Assembly: GCA_000004695.1 (NCBI GenBank)
Contig: CM000154.2
Coordinates: 3,680,001 to 3,744,000 of the forward strand
Direction: 5' to 3'
Origin: Dictyostelium discoideum
Lineage: Eukaryota
DNA length: 64,000 bases
Shown: positions 27,194 through 33,933 of the stretch, one piece after another
Position numbering within the stretch: position 1 is the stretch's first letter
Layout of the letters: each line of letters begins with the position of its first letter
Program-made: the position numbers and the translations under genes
The notes under the pieces: generated by a model
Told to the model about the DNA's origin: nothing
The model's input: the letters and a program-made list of their open reading frames with translations, nothing else
Database searches by the model: none

Positions 27194-30100
27194 TTAAATT
27201 CTATTACTTTTATTATTATTATTTTTTTCTATTGTTGGTAATTTATTACCAGGGAATAATATTTGTTCAAAACTATTTATATCATTCAAAAATTGAATAA
27301 AGGGATAGAAAGAGTGATTTGTATTTAACATTTCTGACCATGACTTTATGTCGACACCTCTTTCTTGACCAAATTCATTTTTAAATAGAGATAGTAATGA
27401 CTCTGAGTTTGCTGTAAAATATGAATAAATATTACTATCACCATTGGCTGGTGGTGAGTTTGAACTTTCTTTTTTATAATTAATTATAAAATTATTAACA
27501 AATTCGTCAATGGGTGTGATATCAGTTTTAATGGATTCTGGTAACAATGGATAATAATTTAATTTCCTGCAAGTGTCAAATAACTTATTTAAATAATTTG
27601 AATAATAAATAGTTGGTGGTGTAATTGTTGTTAAATCATTTTTGTCAACTATAGTTGGGCATATCATTGCTGGTCTATGAATAACTAATTTTTCATCCAA
27701 ATTAAAATTTGAAATAATATATTCTGATAGCCATTTAGATTGTGCATATCCTCCATATATAATTTCATCATCATTATCACAATTAATTGATTGATTTAAG
27801 TTGTAAAGCGTTGCATTTGTTTGTTTTTCTTTTTCCCAATATTTAGAATTTGATAAAATTGTTGACAATGTTGAAATATAATGTATTTTTGAAAATTTAA
27901 AATTACTATGTTTTTCATTATTAATTAAATTATTTATAAAATCTAATAAATAATAAATTGATTTAATATTATCTTTAATCATTTCGTCAAATGGTAAATT
28001 CATATCAACTTTTGCAGCACAATGAATAATTGTTGAAATATTTGAATTTAAACAAAGTTTTTCATATTCTAATTGATTTAAATCAAAATTTATTTTACCA
28101 ATATCACCTTTTAATATAATAATTCTATTTGAATCTTTTAAATTTAATTTATTTAAAATTTCATTTAGTTTTTCAATATTTCTAACCAATAAATAAAATG
28201 TTGAATCTTTAAATTCATTTTCATTACTATTTATAATATTTTTAAATATATTAAAACCAATAAAACCAGTTACACCAGTAATTAATATATTATTTGAATA
28301 ATTTGATTGAAGAGTTTTATTATTATTATTATTTTTATTATTTATTGTGGTGGTGGTGGTAATTTTTTGATTTGTATTAAAATTTAATAAAAATGATTTT
28401 AAATCAAAAATTGATTTAAAACCAAATTCATTTTTAAAATCTTTACTTGTTAATACTAATATAATATTATCAATTGATTTTAAATTATAAATATGAAATA
28501 CTGTTAAGAAAATACCAAATTTAGATCTAGCTAATTCAATTATTTGCATACATTGAATTGAAGTCATACCATAATTTAAAACTAAATCTTGATTAGATTC
28601 AATTGAATCATTCATTAAAATAGTTTTAAATATATTAATTAAATTTGATTTTAAAATTGATTTATTATTACTATCATCATCTTCACCATTTATTTGTTCG
28701 TTTGATTGTTGTTGTTGTTGTTGAATGAATGGGATTGGTAATTGAAATTTATCAATTTTTTCACTTTTATTTAATGGAAATGATTTTAATATAATAAAAT
28801 ATTGTGGTATCATATATTTTGGTAAAGTTTTTGAAAGAAATTCTTTTAAAATATTTGAAAGTAAATTTGAATTTGTTGAAAATGATTTCACTAATTCAAT
28901 ATCATTAATATTGGTATTTAATTTACATGATAATGGTTTTTCTTTTATAATTAAATATGCAATCAATGCTTTGTTATTATTATCACCTACTAATTTAACA
29001 TCACATATTGCTTGATGAACTAAATGATGATTTTCTAAAGTTTTTGAAATTTCATCCAATTCAATTCTTGAACCATTTAATTTTATTTGATTATCTATTC
29101 TACCTCTAAATTCAATAGATTCTTTACCATTTTCATCAATTCCAATTAGTTTACCCCAATCACCAGTTTTAAACATTCTAGTAATACCATCATTTATAAA
29201 TGGATCTAATGAAAATGATTGATCTGTTTGAATTTGATTTTTAAAATAACCTAATGCTACACCATCACCACTAATATAAATCTCACCTTCTGAACCAATG
29301 GTTTTAATTGGTAATTTAGTTTCTTGATCCAATAAATATAAAGATAACCCTGGTACTAAATCACCCAATGATAATAAATTAACATTATCTTTAGTAGCTT
29401 CATCATCGTCATTATCATTATTATTATCATCATCTATTTTATAAATTAAATTTGTAGTTGTACAAACTGTTACTTCAGTTGGACCATAAACATTTATAAT
29501 ATTTATTTTTTTTCTCCATTGTTTTAAAACATTAATTGGGCATTTTTCACCACCAATTACAAAAGTTTCCAATGGTGATGAGTTTGCATTAAATGCATCA
29601 ATTGAAAGTAATGATAAAAATGATGGTGAAATCATAGCCGCTGTAATTTTATTAAGAGTTACATGATTTAAAAATGAAATACTTGAACCTCTAATTAGTT
29701 GAGCATCATTTGAAGTTTTTGGAATTAATAATGTACATCCACCAAGTAGGGAAGTTCCAATTTCTGATAAACTTGCATCAAAACAAATTGGTAATGATTG
29801 TAATAATCTTGTATGTTCTCTTTTAAATTTAAATGACTTAATTTGATGTTTTAAAAATGGTACTATACCTCTGTGAGAACATAATACACCTTTTGGATTA
29901 CCAGTTGAACCACTTGTATAAACTAAATAAGCTGGATCATTAATAATATTAATATTATTATTTCCATTATTTTGTTTTGAAATTTCAAAATTATTATTTA
30001 ATTCTAAAAATTTATCAATTAATTTATTATTAATTTCTTCACAATTAAATAAACAATCTAAACAAATAATTTTTTTATTTTTAAATAATTCTTTATTATT

Positions 30101-30571
30101 ATCATTTTGGTGATGATTATGAGTTGTTATAATTATATTACAATCTGAATGATTTAACATATAAATTAATCTATCATTTGGATATGTTGTATCTAATGGT
30201 AAATAAATTAAATTTAATTTAAAAATTGATAATATTGAAATAATTAATTGGAATGAATGATTTTGATAAACTCCAATAATAATTTTATTATTATTATTAT
30301 TATTATTATTATTATTATTATTATTATTATTATTATTATTATTATTATTATTATTATTATTATTATTATTATTATTATTATTTTGATTTATTATATTTAA
30401 TAAATGATTTGATAAATAATTTGAAATTTTATTCAAATTTTTAAATGATAGGCAATCGTTTTGATTATCATTATTAGAACCAATTACTTTTAAATATTCC
30501 AAAGCATTATGGTCAGAGTCATTTGATTTATTTAATAAATCTATAAATGATTCAAAATAAATATCCCCCAT
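27194..30571 (-). CDS. Single-module NRPS-like enzyme: adenylation (AMP-binding) - thiolation (carrier) - NAD(P)-dependent thioester reductase (A-T-R), 1125 aa, single exon
   Basis: A-domain core motifs are present: LVYTSGSTGNPKG (A3), CFDASLSE (A4), NVYGPTE (A5), GEIYISGDGVALGYF (A6), MFKTGDWG (A7), GRIDNQIKLNGSRIELDEIS (A8), LPKYMIPQYFIIL...SEKIDK (A10). The carrier-like segment is LVLNYGMTSIQCMQIIELA. The C-terminal Rossmann motif ILITGVTGFIGFNIF and YAQSKW (YxxxK) indicate an SDR-type terminal reductase. An (AAT)n tract inserts 38 Asn into the A-domain N-terminal region. Confidence 0.85.
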   Translation of the reverse strand: MGDIYFESFIDLLNKSNDSDHNALEYLKVIGSNNDNQNDCLSFKNLNKISNYLSNHLLNIINQNNNNNNNNNNNNNNNNNNNNNNNNNNNNNNNNKIIIGVYQNHSFQLIISILSIFKLNLIYLPLDTTYPNDRLIYMLNHSDCNIIITTHNHHQNDNNKELFKNKKIICLDCLFNCEEINNKLIDKFLELNNNFEISKQNNGNNNINIINDPAYLVYTSGSTGNPKGVLCSHRGIVPFLKHQIKSFKFKREHTRLLQSLPICFDASLSEIGTSLLGGCTLLIPKTSNDAQLIRGSSISFLNHVTLNKITAAMISPSFLSLLSIDAFNANSSPLETFVIGGEKCPINVLKQWRKKINIINVYGPTEVTVCTTTNLIYKIDDDNNNDNDDDEATKDNVNLLSLGDLVPGLSLYLLDQETKLPIKTIGSEGEIYISGDGVALGYFKNQIQTDQSFSLDPFINDGITRMFKTGDWGKLIGIDENGKESIEFRGRIDNQIKLNGSRIELDEISKTLENHHLVHQAICDVKLVGDNNNKALIAYLIIKEKPLSCKLNTNINDIELVKSFSTNSNLLSNILKEFLSKTLPKYMIPQYFIILKSFPLNKSEKIDKFQLPIPFIQQQQQQSNEQINGEDDDSNNKSILKSNLINIFKTILMNDSIESNQDLVLNYGMTSIQCMQIIELARSKFGIFLTVFHIYNLKSIDNIILVLTSKDFKNEFGFKSIFDLKSFLLNFNTNQKITTTTTINNKNNNNNKTLQSNYSNNILITGVTGFIGFNIFKNIINSNENEFKDSTFYLLVRNIEKLNEILNKLNLKDSNRIIILKGDIGKINFDLNQLEYEKLCLNSNISTIIHCAAKVDMNLPFDEMIKDNIKSIYYLLDFINNLINNEKHSNFKFSKIHYISTLSTILSNSKYWEKEKQTNATLYNLNQSINCDNDDEIIYGGYAQSKWLSEYIISNFNLDEKLVIHRPAMICPTIVDKNDLTTITPPTIYYSNYLNKLFDTCRKLNYYPLLPESIKTDITPIDEFVNNFIINYKKESSNSPPANGDSNIYSYFTANSESLLSLFKNEFGQERGVDIKSWSEMLNTNHSFYPFIQFLNDINSFEQILFPGNKLPTIEKNNNNKSNRI

Positions 30572-32217: not shown

Positions 32218-33933
32218 TTAAACTGGTTCTATTATTGGGTTTTCTTTACCATTATTATGATTATTTAAATCAGCACCATTATTAGTTGGTTGTAATTGTT
32301 GTTGATTTTGTGATTGTTGATTATTAGTTTGTTGTTGTTGATCTTTTCTAGAACAATTTTTTGGAATAGCACTAATTTTCATTGGATAAATAAAGATTGT
32401 TGCTAAAAGGAACCAAAATGAACTAATACCAAAAACAATAGCATAACCATATTGTGAAGAAATTTTAGTACCATTTTCAAGGGTAATTTGAGTAGCTTGT
32501 AAGATGCTACCAGTGATAGCTGGAGCAACTACAGTTGGAGCGATAAAAGAGATATGCCAAATACCCATATCTTTGCCAATGGTTTTATTTGGTAATGAAT
32601 GAAGTGCCAATGCCCAATCAACACATTGATAAGCACCATAACCAACACCTAAGAAACCTGATAGAATCAACAAACCAGCAAATGAAGGATTGAATGAAAT
32701 TGTGATTAATAAAGCTATAGCCACAACTTGAATACCACTACTAATGTATACTAATAGTTTTGTACTGTAAAAATCAGCTAAATAACCACCAGCGATTGAA
32801 GCGGGTATGGAACACATGACCAACACCACTATGATATAACTATTTGTCATTAAATTCGTTTGACCAATGATATCAGTGGCGAAATATAACAAGAAACTAA
32901 AGATCATGTAGATACCAAGTGTATTGAAGAAACGGGTGATTAAGACCCAATAAAAGTTGAAATAGATACTTGATGGGAGATGCAAAGATTTGAAGAAACT
33001 TGGTAAACTACCATCGAATGACCATTCATCATTAGAATCTTCATGCATTGTACAGATGGTGATCAATGCGGAAATACCAAGGAAGGCAATGGTTGCACCA
33101 TACAAATACCATGTATGAATTACATTTTTCACTTCTAATAAAGTACCAAACAAAATTGTACCAATCAATAGACCCAATGAAAAACCAACACCTAACCAAC
33201 CACTTGCAATACCAGATTGTGAAGGATGTACAACATCTGGAATGATACCAGAGAATGCACCACCTGCAATACCTTGACCAAGTTGATAACCACTACAAAC
33301 TATAATAAATCCACCAATTGAATGATATGGTTGATCAAATGTTGCCTCTAAACATAAAAATATAATCATTATCATCGTTCCAACCAATAGATATGGTCTT
33401 CTTCTTCCAAATGGTGTTTTTGTATGATCACTAATATATCCAAATATTGGTGTAATCAATAAATTTATAAACATTCCACTAATTGGTAATATACCATTCC
33501 AATATGTTTTATCTTCTGGTCTTAATATTGAAACTTGATATGGAATTGCAAATGCTGCTGTTGCACCTTGAACAACACTATATCCAAAAAACCATCTTTT
33601 AAAAAAATTAAAAAAAAAAAAAAAAAACAAATAAATAATAAATTAAAAAAAAAAAAAAATTAATATTAAATTTATTATAATAATTTTATATTTATATATT
33701 TCTATATATGTATATTTTTATAAAATTATAATAATAATAATAATAATAATTATAATAATTAATTACATTGATATTTTTATAAAAAATAAAGATGATGATA
33801 TAAAGCTACTTCTAATTTTAATATTATCACGACTATCTTTACTACTTGCTTCTGATATTATTTCTGAACTTTTTGTATGTTCTGATGAATATGTTAAGGT
33901 GGTTTCTGATGTTGCTGATTCCATTTTATCCAT
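32218..33933 (-). CDS. Major facilitator superfamily (MFS) transporter, 2 exons
   Basis: Exons complement 33767..33933 (MDKMESATSETTLTYSSEHTKSS..., donor gtaatt, phase 2) and 32218..33595. 12-TM topology with the MFS loop-2/3 signature GYISDHTKTPFGRRRPYLL. The C-terminal tail is Q/N-rich. Confidence 0.8.

Follow-up and report, generated by a model that had tools for sequence, protein, structure and literature searches.

Introduction

In Streptomyces, the guanipiperazine pathway enzyme GupB adenylates L-Tyr and, once the residue is loaded onto the carrier domain, reduces it; the resulting amino aldehyde dimerises to give a piperazine (PMC8179380). Eukaryotic enzymes of the ATRR type include the fungal glycine betaine reductase (bioRxiv 10.1101/559534), nematode ATRR (PMC11050029) and the diatom enzyme PtNRPS1, which converts Trp to tryptophanol (PMC13194791). 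Dictyostelium has a rich polyketide metabolism (PMC12625978), and D. discoideum possesses an Sfp-type phosphopantetheinyl transferase (PMC3171403).

Here we describe a D. discoideum gene for an adenylation-thiolation-reductase (A-T-R) protein, located in a 64-kb stretch of DNA that we call the window. The original prediction had joined this gene to a nearby MFS transporter gene as a two-gene small-molecule module. We favour, with a probability of roughly 0.7, the explanation that the protein is a stand-alone NRPS-like amino-acid reductase gained from bacteria, and that the MFS gene lies beside it by chance.

Results

The A-T-R coding sequence occupies positions 27194..30571 on the (-) strand as a single exon, stop codon included, and its reading frame is uninterrupted over 1125 aa. 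A 1125-aa gene was also called at the same place in a D. discoideum assembly (L010). Using Pfam we found AMP-binding at residues 99-443 of the window protein (E 7e-55), PP-binding at residues 644-703 (19.6 bits, slightly below the cutoff of 20.8) and NAD_binding_4 at residues 764-1026 (E 1.5e-27). Pfam, NCBIfam and motif mapping place the adenylation domain at residues 1-622 (28706..30571, (-) strand). The original prediction had listed the core motifs A3-A10; all of these are present, and A1 and A2 could be placed as well.

The thiolation (carrier) domain covers residues 632-706 (28454..28678, (-) strand) according to the PP-binding match and a family profile. Among solved structures, this profile matched the PCP in the AusA T-R didomain (4F6L) best, at E 9e-9 and with Ser aligned on Ser. 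The aligned residue in the motif GMTSIQ (668-673) is Ser671, the predicted phosphopantetheine-attachment site, whose codon lies at 28559-28561 on the (-) strand. The AF2 model, though poor (mean pLDDT 52.8), has a helix that begins at residue 671.

The thioester reductase (SDR) and its C-terminal subdomain comprise residues 758-1125 (27197..28300, (-) strand), with the motifs GVTGFIG at 766-772 and YAQSK at 942-946. This region matches NAD_binding_4 and falls below the TIGR01746 cutoff of 213, with 88 bits for the window protein and 88-108 bits for dictyostelids, and by this measure the dictyostelid R domain is divergent.

One A-T-R orthologue was found in each of six dictyostelid species and in two EukProt datasets. 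The catalytic residues of the A, T and R domains are all invariant across 8 sequences that are 40-97% identical. These include the A3 P-loop, the FDAS and YGPTE motifs, K605 and Ser671, and in the reductase G766 and G769 of the NADPH motif GVTGFIG together with R797 and the Ser/Thr-Tyr-Lys residues S900, T901, Y942 and K946. The gene is an old, single-copy and strongly constrained component of Dictyostelia. Acytostelium subglobosum, which has two MFS paralogues, contributed no A-T-R to the best 120 matches. Profile searches and orthologue conservation both bear out the enzyme call: the A-T-R layout and the reductase are confirmed, the carrier Ser looks functional, and the domain searches do not reduce the protein to an acyl-CoA synthetase. 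We conclude that the predicted product is an intact, uncharacterised single-module NRPS-like A-T-R enzyme.

An (AAT)n microsatellite lies between motifs A1 and A2 and encodes 32 consecutive Asn at residues 64-95 (30287..30382, (-) strand); TRF counted 36.3 triplet copies at 30285-30394. An Asn insertion in the adenylation domain had been predicted and is there, but with 32 consecutive residues rather than 38. AF2 models this segment with a pLDDT of ~30 and assigns it no secondary structure. The protein of another D. discoideum strain (P0121) has only ~12 Asn at the same site and is ~97% identical outside the run, and in D. purpureum the A domain contains a Myb-like insertion of ~170 aa. These insertions are located in loops that separate the core motifs.

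We obtained the specificity code by alignment to residues 234-526 of 1AMU. The code is DASMVGVVCK (D265, A266, S269, M313, V338, G340, V361, V369, C370 and K605) and is invariant in 9/9 dictyostelid sequences, which implies one conserved substrate. The equivalents of Asp235, which contacts the alpha-amino group of the substrate, and of Lys517 are retained in all orthologues, and this indicates an alpha-amino-acid substrate. The A domain is by sequence of the amino-acid-activating type. Its closest solved relatives in a PDB search are LgrA, ApnA-A1 and GrsA-PheA, and the 57 PDB matches at E < 1e-20 are A domains of NRPS modules, DltA and stand-alone aminoacyl ligases. TIGR01733 was the top NCBIfam match of the window protein, and the T. 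lacteum orthologue exceeds the curated cutoff of this model (341 vs 317). The code agrees at 7/10 positions with the Tyr-type DASTVAAVCK and likewise at 7/10 with the Gln-type DAQDVGVVNK, and either code is present among the matches, in keeping with the earlier statement that the substrate cannot be read from the sequence. Lys-type and Leu-type codes are similar to it as well. Since the pocket residues S, M, V, G, V, V and C are all neutral, a large, uncharged side chain (Tyr/Phe/Leu/Met-like) is the most likely.

Outside Dictyostelia, the protein is most closely related to seven standalone A-T-R proteins of bacteria (P0027, P0028, P0052, P0058, P0077, P0086 and P0105), and no non-dictyostelid eukaryote appeared among the best 120 matches. 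These seven share the three-domain layout at similar length, as does an alphaproteobacterial MAG locus (L012), and the bacterial proteins are 30-36% identical to the dictyostelid protein in the A domain. The seven match 8-9/10 code positions (DAS[C/D][I/V]GVVCK), with Cys or Asp at position 278 where dictyostelids have Met; the R domains of the bacterial sisters pass TIGR01746, whereas the dictyostelid ones do not. In a neighbour-joining (NJ) distance tree of A domains the seven grouped with the dictyostelid clade in 46/60 bootstraps (77% support), and dictyostelid monophyly was recovered in 60/60. Given these bacterial standalone relatives, an ancient horizontal transfer is likely. This tree, together with the lack of other eukaryotes among the best 120 matches, suggests that the gene was most likely gained from bacteria before dictyostelids radiated. 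The bacterial genes have as genomic partners either a 98-aa ORF or an AsnB-type amidotransferase gene together with genes for a methyltransferase and an aminotransferase or ADH; none of them is near the Dictyostelium gene.

The MFS gene, DDB_G0290153, lies at 32218..33933 on the (-) strand. Its predicted range corresponds to a correct two-exon model (exon 1 33933-33767, intron 33766-33596, exon 2 33595-32218), and its 514-aa product is 100% identical to the AX4 protein, which assigns the window to the AX4 lineage of D. discoideum. MFS_1 covers 338/347 profile positions, and MFS_2 is matched as well (Pfam). The housekeeping sugar or ion transporter raised earlier as an alternative did not emerge, as no Pfam or NCBIfam match marks the protein as one, and by sequence it belongs to an uncharacterised MFS subfamily. 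As predicted, the gene is on the same strand as the A-T-R gene, 1646 bp from its start codon, with the gene for mitochondrial ribosomal protein L30 in between, though on the opposite strand. The L30 gene (31190..31628, (+) strand; exons 31190-31489 and 31584-31628) has splice sites that can be read in the sequence, matches Pfam Ribosomal_L30 and TIGR01308, and encodes a 114-aa product that was also called in L010. It is a neighbour outside the enzyme system. The A-T-R and L30 genes are divergent, and from this orientation the A/T-rich 618 bp between them (30572..31189) presumably hold both promoters. On the other side of the A-T-R gene lies the ribosomal protein S17e gene (26333..27026, (+) strand), whose approximate limits were mapped from L010, with a main exon from ~26548; its reading frame GRVRTKT... 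was found in the window sequence.

L30 neighbours the MFS gene in 5/5 species whose MFS locus was read, and an AGC kinase gene lies beside it in D. discoideum, D. purpureum and C. fasciculata. This AGC-kinase-MFS-L30 block is retained across Dictyostelia without the A-T-R gene. S17e adjoins the A-T-R gene in D. purpureum and P. violaceum too, and the two blocks adjoin each other only in group 4. The MFS gene is next to the A-T-R gene in D. discoideum and D. purpureum and within ~6 kb of it in T. lacteum, and EukProt gene numbering (5913 for the MFS, 5916 for an R-domain fragment) hints at a similar layout in a further dictyostelid. They are on separate scaffolds or contigs in C. fasciculata, H. 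album and P. violaceum. We found no A-T-R/MFS pairing at the loci read of bacterial homologues of either gene: MFS genes close to bacterial A-T-Rs are of another subfamily (E > 0.3), and no A-T-R is near the one bacterial homologue of DDB_G0290153 whose locus was read. There are no tailoring genes in the 64-kb window.

Discussion

Our data suggest that the A-T-R gene encodes an NADPH-dependent enzyme that probably converts an amino acid to a reactive amino aldehyde or amino alcohol. Going by the chemistry of the family at each step, the A domain would adenylate one L-alpha-amino acid, and the carrier domain would take up the aminoacyl group on the phosphopantetheine arm at Ser671, an arm presumably installed by the Sfp-type transferase DiSfp. 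The C-terminal SDR reductase with NADPH would then free the thioester as an alpha-amino aldehyde, and a second reduction could give the amino alcohol. By analogy with GupB, such reactive amino aldehydes would typically condense with one another and form dihydropyrazines, pyrazines or piperazines.

It is unlikely that the enzyme makes a small molecule which the MFS protein exports. Such a module would fit two genes 1.6 kb apart on one strand, with adjacency retained in D. purpureum, a spacing of ~6 kb at most in T. lacteum and gene numbers suggesting the same layout in another dictyostelid; the nearest non-dictyostelid relatives of both proteins are bacterial, and the transporter is not an identifiable housekeeping carrier. 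However, the genes are separate in three species, bacteria show neither an MFS gene of this subfamily beside an A-T-R nor an A-T-R at the single MFS locus read, and the presumed A-T-R promoter region is common with L30, not with the MFS gene. A weak further point is A. subglobosum, with MFS paralogues and no A-T-R match. The transporter is instead tied to L30 in five species and to the AGC kinase in three; these neighbours are functionally unrelated to it, and therefore microsynteny is no sign of function here. Thus the predicted module is not supported, and the adjacency in D. discoideum suggests chance neighbours, two conserved synteny blocks with no relation to each other. A derived functional association may exist in groups 3 and 4, because there the genes are adjacent or near.

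We consider it more improbable still that the protein is a CAR-type carboxylic-acid reductase turning an aryl, fatty or other non-amino acid into an aldehyde for lipid or polyketide-related metabolism. The A-T-R layout is common to CARs, the polyketide-rich metabolism of Dictyostelium would suit it, and the R domain of orthologues matches NF041592 weakly (93-97 bits). However, in the two orthologues scanned this score is far under the cutoff of 1300 and comes from the R part alone, the 25 best families listed for the window protein do not include NF041592, and no CAR structure is among the 57 PDB matches. The invariant Asp235 equivalent and the T. lacteum score against the amino-acid adenylation model TIGR01733 also argue against a non-amino acid. 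A decaying or catalytically dead relic, tolerated as a pseudo-enzyme, is very improbable: the Asn run, the Myb-like insertion and the sub-threshold T and R scores could be taken that way, but the reading frame is intact, catalytic residues are invariant down to 40% identity, the specificity code is likewise invariant, insertions are confined to loops, and the Asn run differs between strains whose proteins otherwise hardly do. Least probable of all is a Lys2-type alpha-aminoadipate reductase of primary lysine metabolism. The layout agrees and the TIGR03443 alignment spans most of the protein, but the score is 211 bits (206-230 with orthologues) against a cutoff of 1030, the AusA and MxcG models score equally or higher, and no fungal Lys2 is among the best 120 matches. 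D. discoideum requires lysine in defined medium and so would be without lysine biosynthesis, which also counts against this role. The likeness to carboxylic-acid and aminoadipate reductases noted originally therefore stands for the layout and not for the family assignment. As proposed for the Dictyostelium stand-alone amino-acid reductase, Lys2 and CAR depend on a phosphopantetheinyl transferase and form aldehydes with NADPH, but the Dictyostelium protein does not reach the cutoffs of their curated models, and its A domain is of the alpha-amino-acid type.

The top-scoring full-length NCBIfam models are AusA (aureusimine/pyrazinone synthetase) and MxcG (myxochelin), matched at their terminal A-T-R modules, which release an aminoacyl or peptidyl thioester reductively, as we propose here. 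Both modules belong to multi-domain NRPSs with condensation domains, whereas the Dictyostelium protein has none, and its scores are far below the equivalog cutoffs (AusA 225-336 vs 2500; MxcG 179-244 vs 2300). ATRR-type enzymes have two consecutive R domains (A-T-R1-R2) while the Dictyostelium protein stops after one, and none is among its best 120 matches; we therefore rejected an ATRR identity. They are nevertheless eukaryotic NRPS-like reductases with roles in physiology or signalling rather than in classical secondary-metabolite clusters, and one of them, PtNRPS1, reduces an amino acid, as proposed for the Dictyostelium enzyme (PMC13194791). GupB is encoded in a true cluster that also contains an F420 reductase and two P450s, while the Dictyostelium gene has no comparable flanks in the window. 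It is, however, likewise stand-alone and without a condensation domain (PMC8179380), and by its described chemistry, not its sequence, GupB would be the best mechanistic model for the Dictyostelium enzyme.

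Domain composition and conservation of A-T-R

The A-T-R protein (adenylation, carrier and thioester reductase) is encoded in a very A/T-rich window (G+C 12–30%) by an uninterrupted ORF of 1125 codons on the minus strand (27194–30571). We found that the three domain families named in the original prediction each matched this protein by Pfam: AMP-binding at residues 99–443 (E 7e-55), NAD_binding_4 at residues 764–1026 (E 1.5e-27) and, slightly below its gathering score, PP-binding at residues 644–703 (19.6 bits vs 20.8). These were the only Pfam families in the protein, which ends about 100 residues past the SDR core, and the scan of the full protein detected no condensation domain, no thioesterase and no second reductase domain. 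Among NCBIfam models the top family was TIGR01733 (amino-acid adenylation). TIGR01746 (thioester reductase) was also matched, with a score of 88 against a curated cutoff of 213, which indicates that the R domain is divergent.

All of the adenylation motifs A1–A10 could be placed, as could the carrier motif YGMTSIQ, in which the phosphopantetheine serine is Ser671, and the reductase motifs ITGVTGFIG (the NADPH motif), YISTLS and YAQSK. The A motifs, carrier serine and SDR-type reductase originally read from the sequence were therefore found again by Pfam, NCBIfam and motif location. An AF2 model of the full protein built from an eight-sequence alignment had a mean pLDDT of 52.8 and a pTM of 0.35, so that it was used qualitatively only and was too poor for pocket analysis or fold search; at low confidence it starts a helix at residue 671, the position of the carrier serine.

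The A-T-R protein of the window was not present in a collection of 15 billion proteins, though the neighboring transporter DDB_G0290153 is there under its AX4 name, and the AX4 annotation may lack the gene or differ at this point. In another D. discoideum assembly a single-exon gene encoding 1125 aa is called between L30, a mitoribosomal protein gene, and S17e, a cytosolic ribosomal protein gene.

D. purpureum, P. violaceum, T. lacteum, C. fasciculata and H. album each yielded one A-T-R orthologue, and two EukProt datasets contributed two more. We aligned eight sequences, 40–97% identical to the window protein. In the adenylation domain A3, A4, A5, A7, A8 and the A10 lysine were invariant across the eight family members, including the P-loop YTSGSTGxPKG, FDASLSE, YGPTE, TGDWG and Lys605. 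In the carrier Ser671-Ile672 and a preceding Asp-Leu were invariant, and in the reductase G766, G769, R797, D823, H850, S900, T901, Y942 and K946. A family profile of the carrier region picked up carrier domains of NRPSs in the PDB. Its top match was the PCP in the T-R didomain of AusA (4F6L, E 9e-9), where the family serine falls on the phosphopantetheine serine. Because of these invariant residues and the match to the AusA PCP, we regard the A, T and R domains as all likely to be catalytically competent. The sub-threshold scores of single sequences reflect divergence and low-complexity inserts. With TIGR01733 (cutoff 317.4), the window protein scored 275.9, P. violaceum 287.9 and T. lacteum 341.4, and two bacterial relatives scored above the cutoff at 327–333 bits. 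The match in the window protein starts at profile position 25, right after an asparagine run, which presumably costs it the first 24 profile positions.

This run had been described as a 38-Asn insertion. We found 32 consecutive asparagines (residues 64–95), encoded by a triplet array of 110 bp and 36.3 copies (TRF), lying between motifs A1 and A2 in a segment that is unstructured in the low-confidence AF2 model. In two more D. discoideum-type strains the proteins are 92–94% identical to the window A-T-R and differ from it mainly by indels in low-complexity runs; in one strain the Asn run is about 12 residues. Since its length differs among strains, the run is a length-polymorphic microsatellite. 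Two (TTA)n arrays of equal length (110 bp, 36.3 copies, 94% matches) lie about 1.4 kb apart, one encoding the Asn run (30285–30394) and one in the L30-MFS intergenic region (31773–31882). They are probably typical Dictyostelium microsatellites.

The D. purpureum orthologue (P0002; L001 10001–13800) contains a Myb/SANT-like double repeat (PF00249/PF13921), about 170 aa long and in frame, in the loop between motifs A2 and A3, especially at 10480–11120 of the same locus. One short intron interrupts the insert, and the same 1030-aa ORF runs on into A3. The repeat is therefore a real DNA-binding-type insertion in the adenylation domain and does not come from a fused gene model.

Class assignment and specificity code

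Three better-known types of reductase-terminated enzyme were considered for A-T-R, namely Lys2 (L-aminoadipate-semialdehyde dehydrogenase), carboxylic acid reductase (CAR) and the ATRR type with two consecutive reductase domains. The Lys2 model TIGR03443 does match the family, at 210.9 bits for the window protein and 206–230 bits for the orthologues; these scores are far below the equivalog cutoff of 1030, and Lys2 identity was rejected. Similarly, the CAR model NF041592 reached 93–97 bits in two orthologues, in the R region only and against a cutoff of 1300, and it was not among the best 25 families for the window protein. No CAR structure appeared among the PDB matches of A-T-R, and CAR identity was likewise rejected. 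The best solved relatives were LgrA, ApnA-A1, GrsA-PheA, McyB and TycA, which are amino-acid-activating NRPS A domains. As only one reductase domain is present (764–1026 in a protein that ends at 1125), A-T-R is not of the ATRR type.

We then compared the substrate pocket with that of GrsA PheA. The reference fragment was checked to be identical to 1AMU residues 234–526, and the Stachelhaus positions were transferred by alignment. This gave the code DASMVGVVCK, which was found with zero changes in the window protein and eight other dictyostelid sequences. The equivalents of Asp235 and Lys517 in 1AMU numbering, D265 and K605, are invariant in all orthologues, indicating that the substrate is an alpha-amino acid. 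At the other pocket positions every residue (S, M, V, G, V, V and C) is neutral. The code matches the Tyr-type DASTVAAVCK and the Gln-type DAQDVGVVNK, both found among the matches, at 7/10 positions each, and because of this equal distance a single-substrate call from ten residues was rejected, in agreement with the original expectation that the substrate cannot be read from the sequence. The code also resembles those for Leu (DAFMLGMVFK) and Lys (DAESIGSVCK), with Ser, Met and Cys at 239, 278 and 331 in place of their bulky or charged residues. Judged by the pocket residues, we weakly favor a substrate like Tyr, Phe, Leu or Met, whose side chain is large and uncharged. A role in the biosynthesis of glorin, an ornithine lactam, was rejected: a basic side chain would call for an acidic residue, which the pocket lacks, and a lactam would not result from reductive release.

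A-T-R and the neighboring MFS transporter

The original prediction joined A-T-R with an MFS transporter (DDB_G0290153, 32218–33933, minus strand) as a possible two-gene small-molecule module. The transporter gene was spliced by eye into exon 1 (33933–33767) and exon 2 (33595–32218) around an intron GTAATT...AAAAG, giving a 514-aa product. This product matches the AX4 protein DDB_G0290153 at 100% identity, which places the window in D. discoideum. L30 (31190–31628) does lie between the two genes as described, and it is on the opposite, plus strand. The transporter covers positions 1–338 of the 347 of MFS_1 (E 4e-19), also matches MFS_2 (E 3e-11) and has about 11–12 hydrophobic spans in a crude hydropathy scan. 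Curated subfamilies were not reached, GPH scoring 38 bits vs 231 and BT1 being likewise far below threshold. It had been noted that orthology to a housekeeping sugar or ion transporter would speak against a module; by profile neither such a carrier nor a known drug exporter could be recognized.

Seven named dictyostelid species yielded orthologues of the transporter. Beyond these it is closest to bacterial MFS proteins, with about 40% identity; few of them carry names, and those that do are mostly from Chloroflexota (Roseiflexaceae, Ardenticatenaceae). The best 120 matches included no eukaryote other than dictyostelids. Going by these matches, the transporter gene may also have been acquired from bacteria long ago, in a second event independent of any transfer of A-T-R.

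We asked what neighbors the two genes in other dictyostelids. D. discoideum and D. purpureum share the order AGC kinase, MFS, L30, A-T-R, S17e, and in T. lacteum the order is A-T-R, a gene encoding 1510 aa, L30, MFS. In P. violaceum S17e, A-T-R and OGDH are on one contig and MFS, L30 and G-alpha on another. In C. fasciculata AGC kinase, MFS and L30 are on one scaffold and A-T-R is on another. In H. album there is no MFS gene within 10 kb of A-T-R, and the MFS orthologue is assigned to another scaffold because its contig differs in length. MFS and L30 were adjacent in 5/5 dictyostelid MFS loci read, those of D. discoideum, D. purpureum, T. lacteum, P. violaceum and C. fasciculata (they include window 32218–39423, L001, L092, L093 and L003); besides P. 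violaceum, these species represent taxon groups 1, 3 and 4. The AGC kinase is upstream of MFS in three species, D. discoideum, D. purpureum and C. fasciculata. The constant neighbor of A-T-R is S17e, forming a second conserved pair. The juxtaposition of A-T-R and MFS is thus lineage-restricted: it is not kept in P. violaceum, C. fasciculata and H. album, and MFS tracks L30. In a EukProt dictyostelid dataset the MFS orthologue (P0125, gene 5913) and a 340-aa R-domain fragment (P0242, gene 5916) are three gene numbers apart, which hints at the MFS-L30-A-T-R order of D. discoideum with A-T-R split by the gene caller.

Nor did the wider comparison join the two genes. MFS genes near bacterial A-T-Rs belong to another subfamily than DDB_G0290153 (E > 0.3), and at the one bacterial locus read for a DDB_G0290153 homologue there is no A-T-R nearby. 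The 618-bp region upstream of A-T-R is common with L30 and not with MFS, so that A-T-R and MFS have separate upstream regions. Elsewhere the 64-kb window codes for GARS-AIRS, LRR, WD40, F-box, S28 peptidase, CfaA-like, MIOX, GAT-domain and bZIP proteins, and no P450, methyltransferase, oxidoreductase or PKS. That the two genes were transferred horizontally together was rejected, since they are unpaired in bacteria and unlinked in basal dictyostelids. We consider the two-gene module improbable, and the cluster interpretation that had lent the finding its distinction is not supported. Evidently microsynteny in these genomes persists without functional meaning, and with genes unrelated in function kept side by side so deeply, any inference of a cluster in them calls for caution.

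Five runs of exactly 100 N mark assembly gaps in the window (14756–14855, 21849–21948, 34854–34953, 36194–36293 and 37247–37346). Three of these are just upstream of MFS, and the MFS-kinase intergenic region is consequently incompletely known. Elsewhere on the minus strand, two adjacent long ORFs of 843 and 741 aa (53307–55838 and 56207–58432) with one bZIP domain each look like tandem bZIP transcription-factor genes.

Relatives of A-T-R outside Dictyostelia

Among the best 120 matches to A-T-R no eukaryote other than dictyostelids was found. The nearest relatives were seven bacterial stand-alone A-T-Rs of 950–1045 aa, which share 8–9/10 code positions (DAS[C/D][I/V]GVVCK) and are encoded on bacterial contigs. 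In a neighbor-joining tree of 123 A domains with 60 bootstraps, the dictyostelids were monophyletic in 60/60 replicates, the seven bacterial proteins in 59/60, and the two groups were sisters in 46/60. Given this distance tree and the lack of eukaryotic relatives among the best 120 matches, the simplest reading is an ancient transfer of A-T-R from bacteria to the dictyostelid stem.

The contigs of two of the bacterial proteins (P0027 and P0077) have DUF1564 neighbors. We take DUF1564 to be a Leptospira-type domain, and on the basis of these neighbors only we call the two Leptospira-like. Members with Cys278, the Leptospira-like type (L007 and L009), have a conserved 98-aa ORF with no Pfam match translationally coupled upstream of A-T-R. 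Members with Asp278 lie in operons that also encode an AsnB-type glutamine amidotransferase, together with either a Zn-ADH or both a methyltransferase and a class-V aminotransferase. One such operon (L006 7306–14309) has the amidotransferase, methyltransferase and aminotransferase genes together with A-T-R. When reference bacterial genomes were scanned, one close relative only was returned, in an alphaproteobacterial MAG (L012 3501–9722) with the order Zn-ADH, AsnB, A-T-R; this enzyme carries an extra C-terminal AAA_28 domain.

A search of 1.84 billion representatives with a profile of the family alignment told us nothing about the A-T-R subfamily, as its best 150 matches were giant multi-module NRPSs with scores summed over modules. 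A search with the R domain alone returned only P0242 and missed known orthologues, which we read as a limitation of the word index and not as biology.

Proposed activity and significance

Starting from the observed domain composition, catalytic-residue conservation, amino-acid-type pocket and single reductase, and drawing the later steps from NRPS enzymology and characterized analogues, we propose that A-T-R would adenylate one L-amino acid in an ATP-dependent reaction, form an aminoacyl thioester on the phosphopantetheine of Ser671 and release it by NADPH-dependent reduction as an alpha-amino aldehyde, which might be further reduced to the alcohol. The aldehyde could then condense, spontaneously or with the help of an enzyme, and give products of the pyrazine or piperazine type, as in the case of GupB (PMC8179380). 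Alternatively the product could be used as an amino-alcohol signal, as for the diatom PtNRPS1 (PMC13194791). The holo-enzyme would need a phosphopantetheinyl transferase, which the original prediction proposed to look for elsewhere in the genome, and an Sfp-type PPTase is indeed reported in D. discoideum (PMC3171403).

In literature searches on the gene, on the DDB_G identifiers of its neighbors and on social-amoeba NRPS, we found no publication on the A-T-R gene or on any amoeba-encoded NRPS-type enzyme. Natural-product work in Dictyostelium has centered on its many polyketide synthases and on terpene synthases. In a recent study the knockout of DiSfp, the D. discoideum Sfp-type PPTase, is interpreted as "PKS-null" and the A-T-R enzyme is not mentioned (PMC12625978). 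We put at roughly one in four the chance that A-T-R is an ancient bacterial acquisition whose pocket has stayed unchanged over the whole dictyostelid radiation, kept for a conserved amino-aldehyde-derived molecule, and an overlooked client of DiSfp; its product would then be, for example, a pyrazine, piperazine or amino-alcohol signal or defense compound new to Dictyostelium chemistry. If so, the DiSfp-knockout phenotypes could stem partly from loss of A-T-R (PMC12625978), a caveat being that loss of an Sfp-type PPTase need not equal loss of polyketides only.

Being single-copy, Dictyostelia-wide and of bacterial type, with a frozen pocket, A-T-R offers a clean, testable entry to an amino-acid-derived metabolite. 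Interest in it would be higher if the product were a conserved dictyostelid signal. The enzyme class to which it belongs is already well known, and A-T-R is a new and evolutionarily interesting member of that class.
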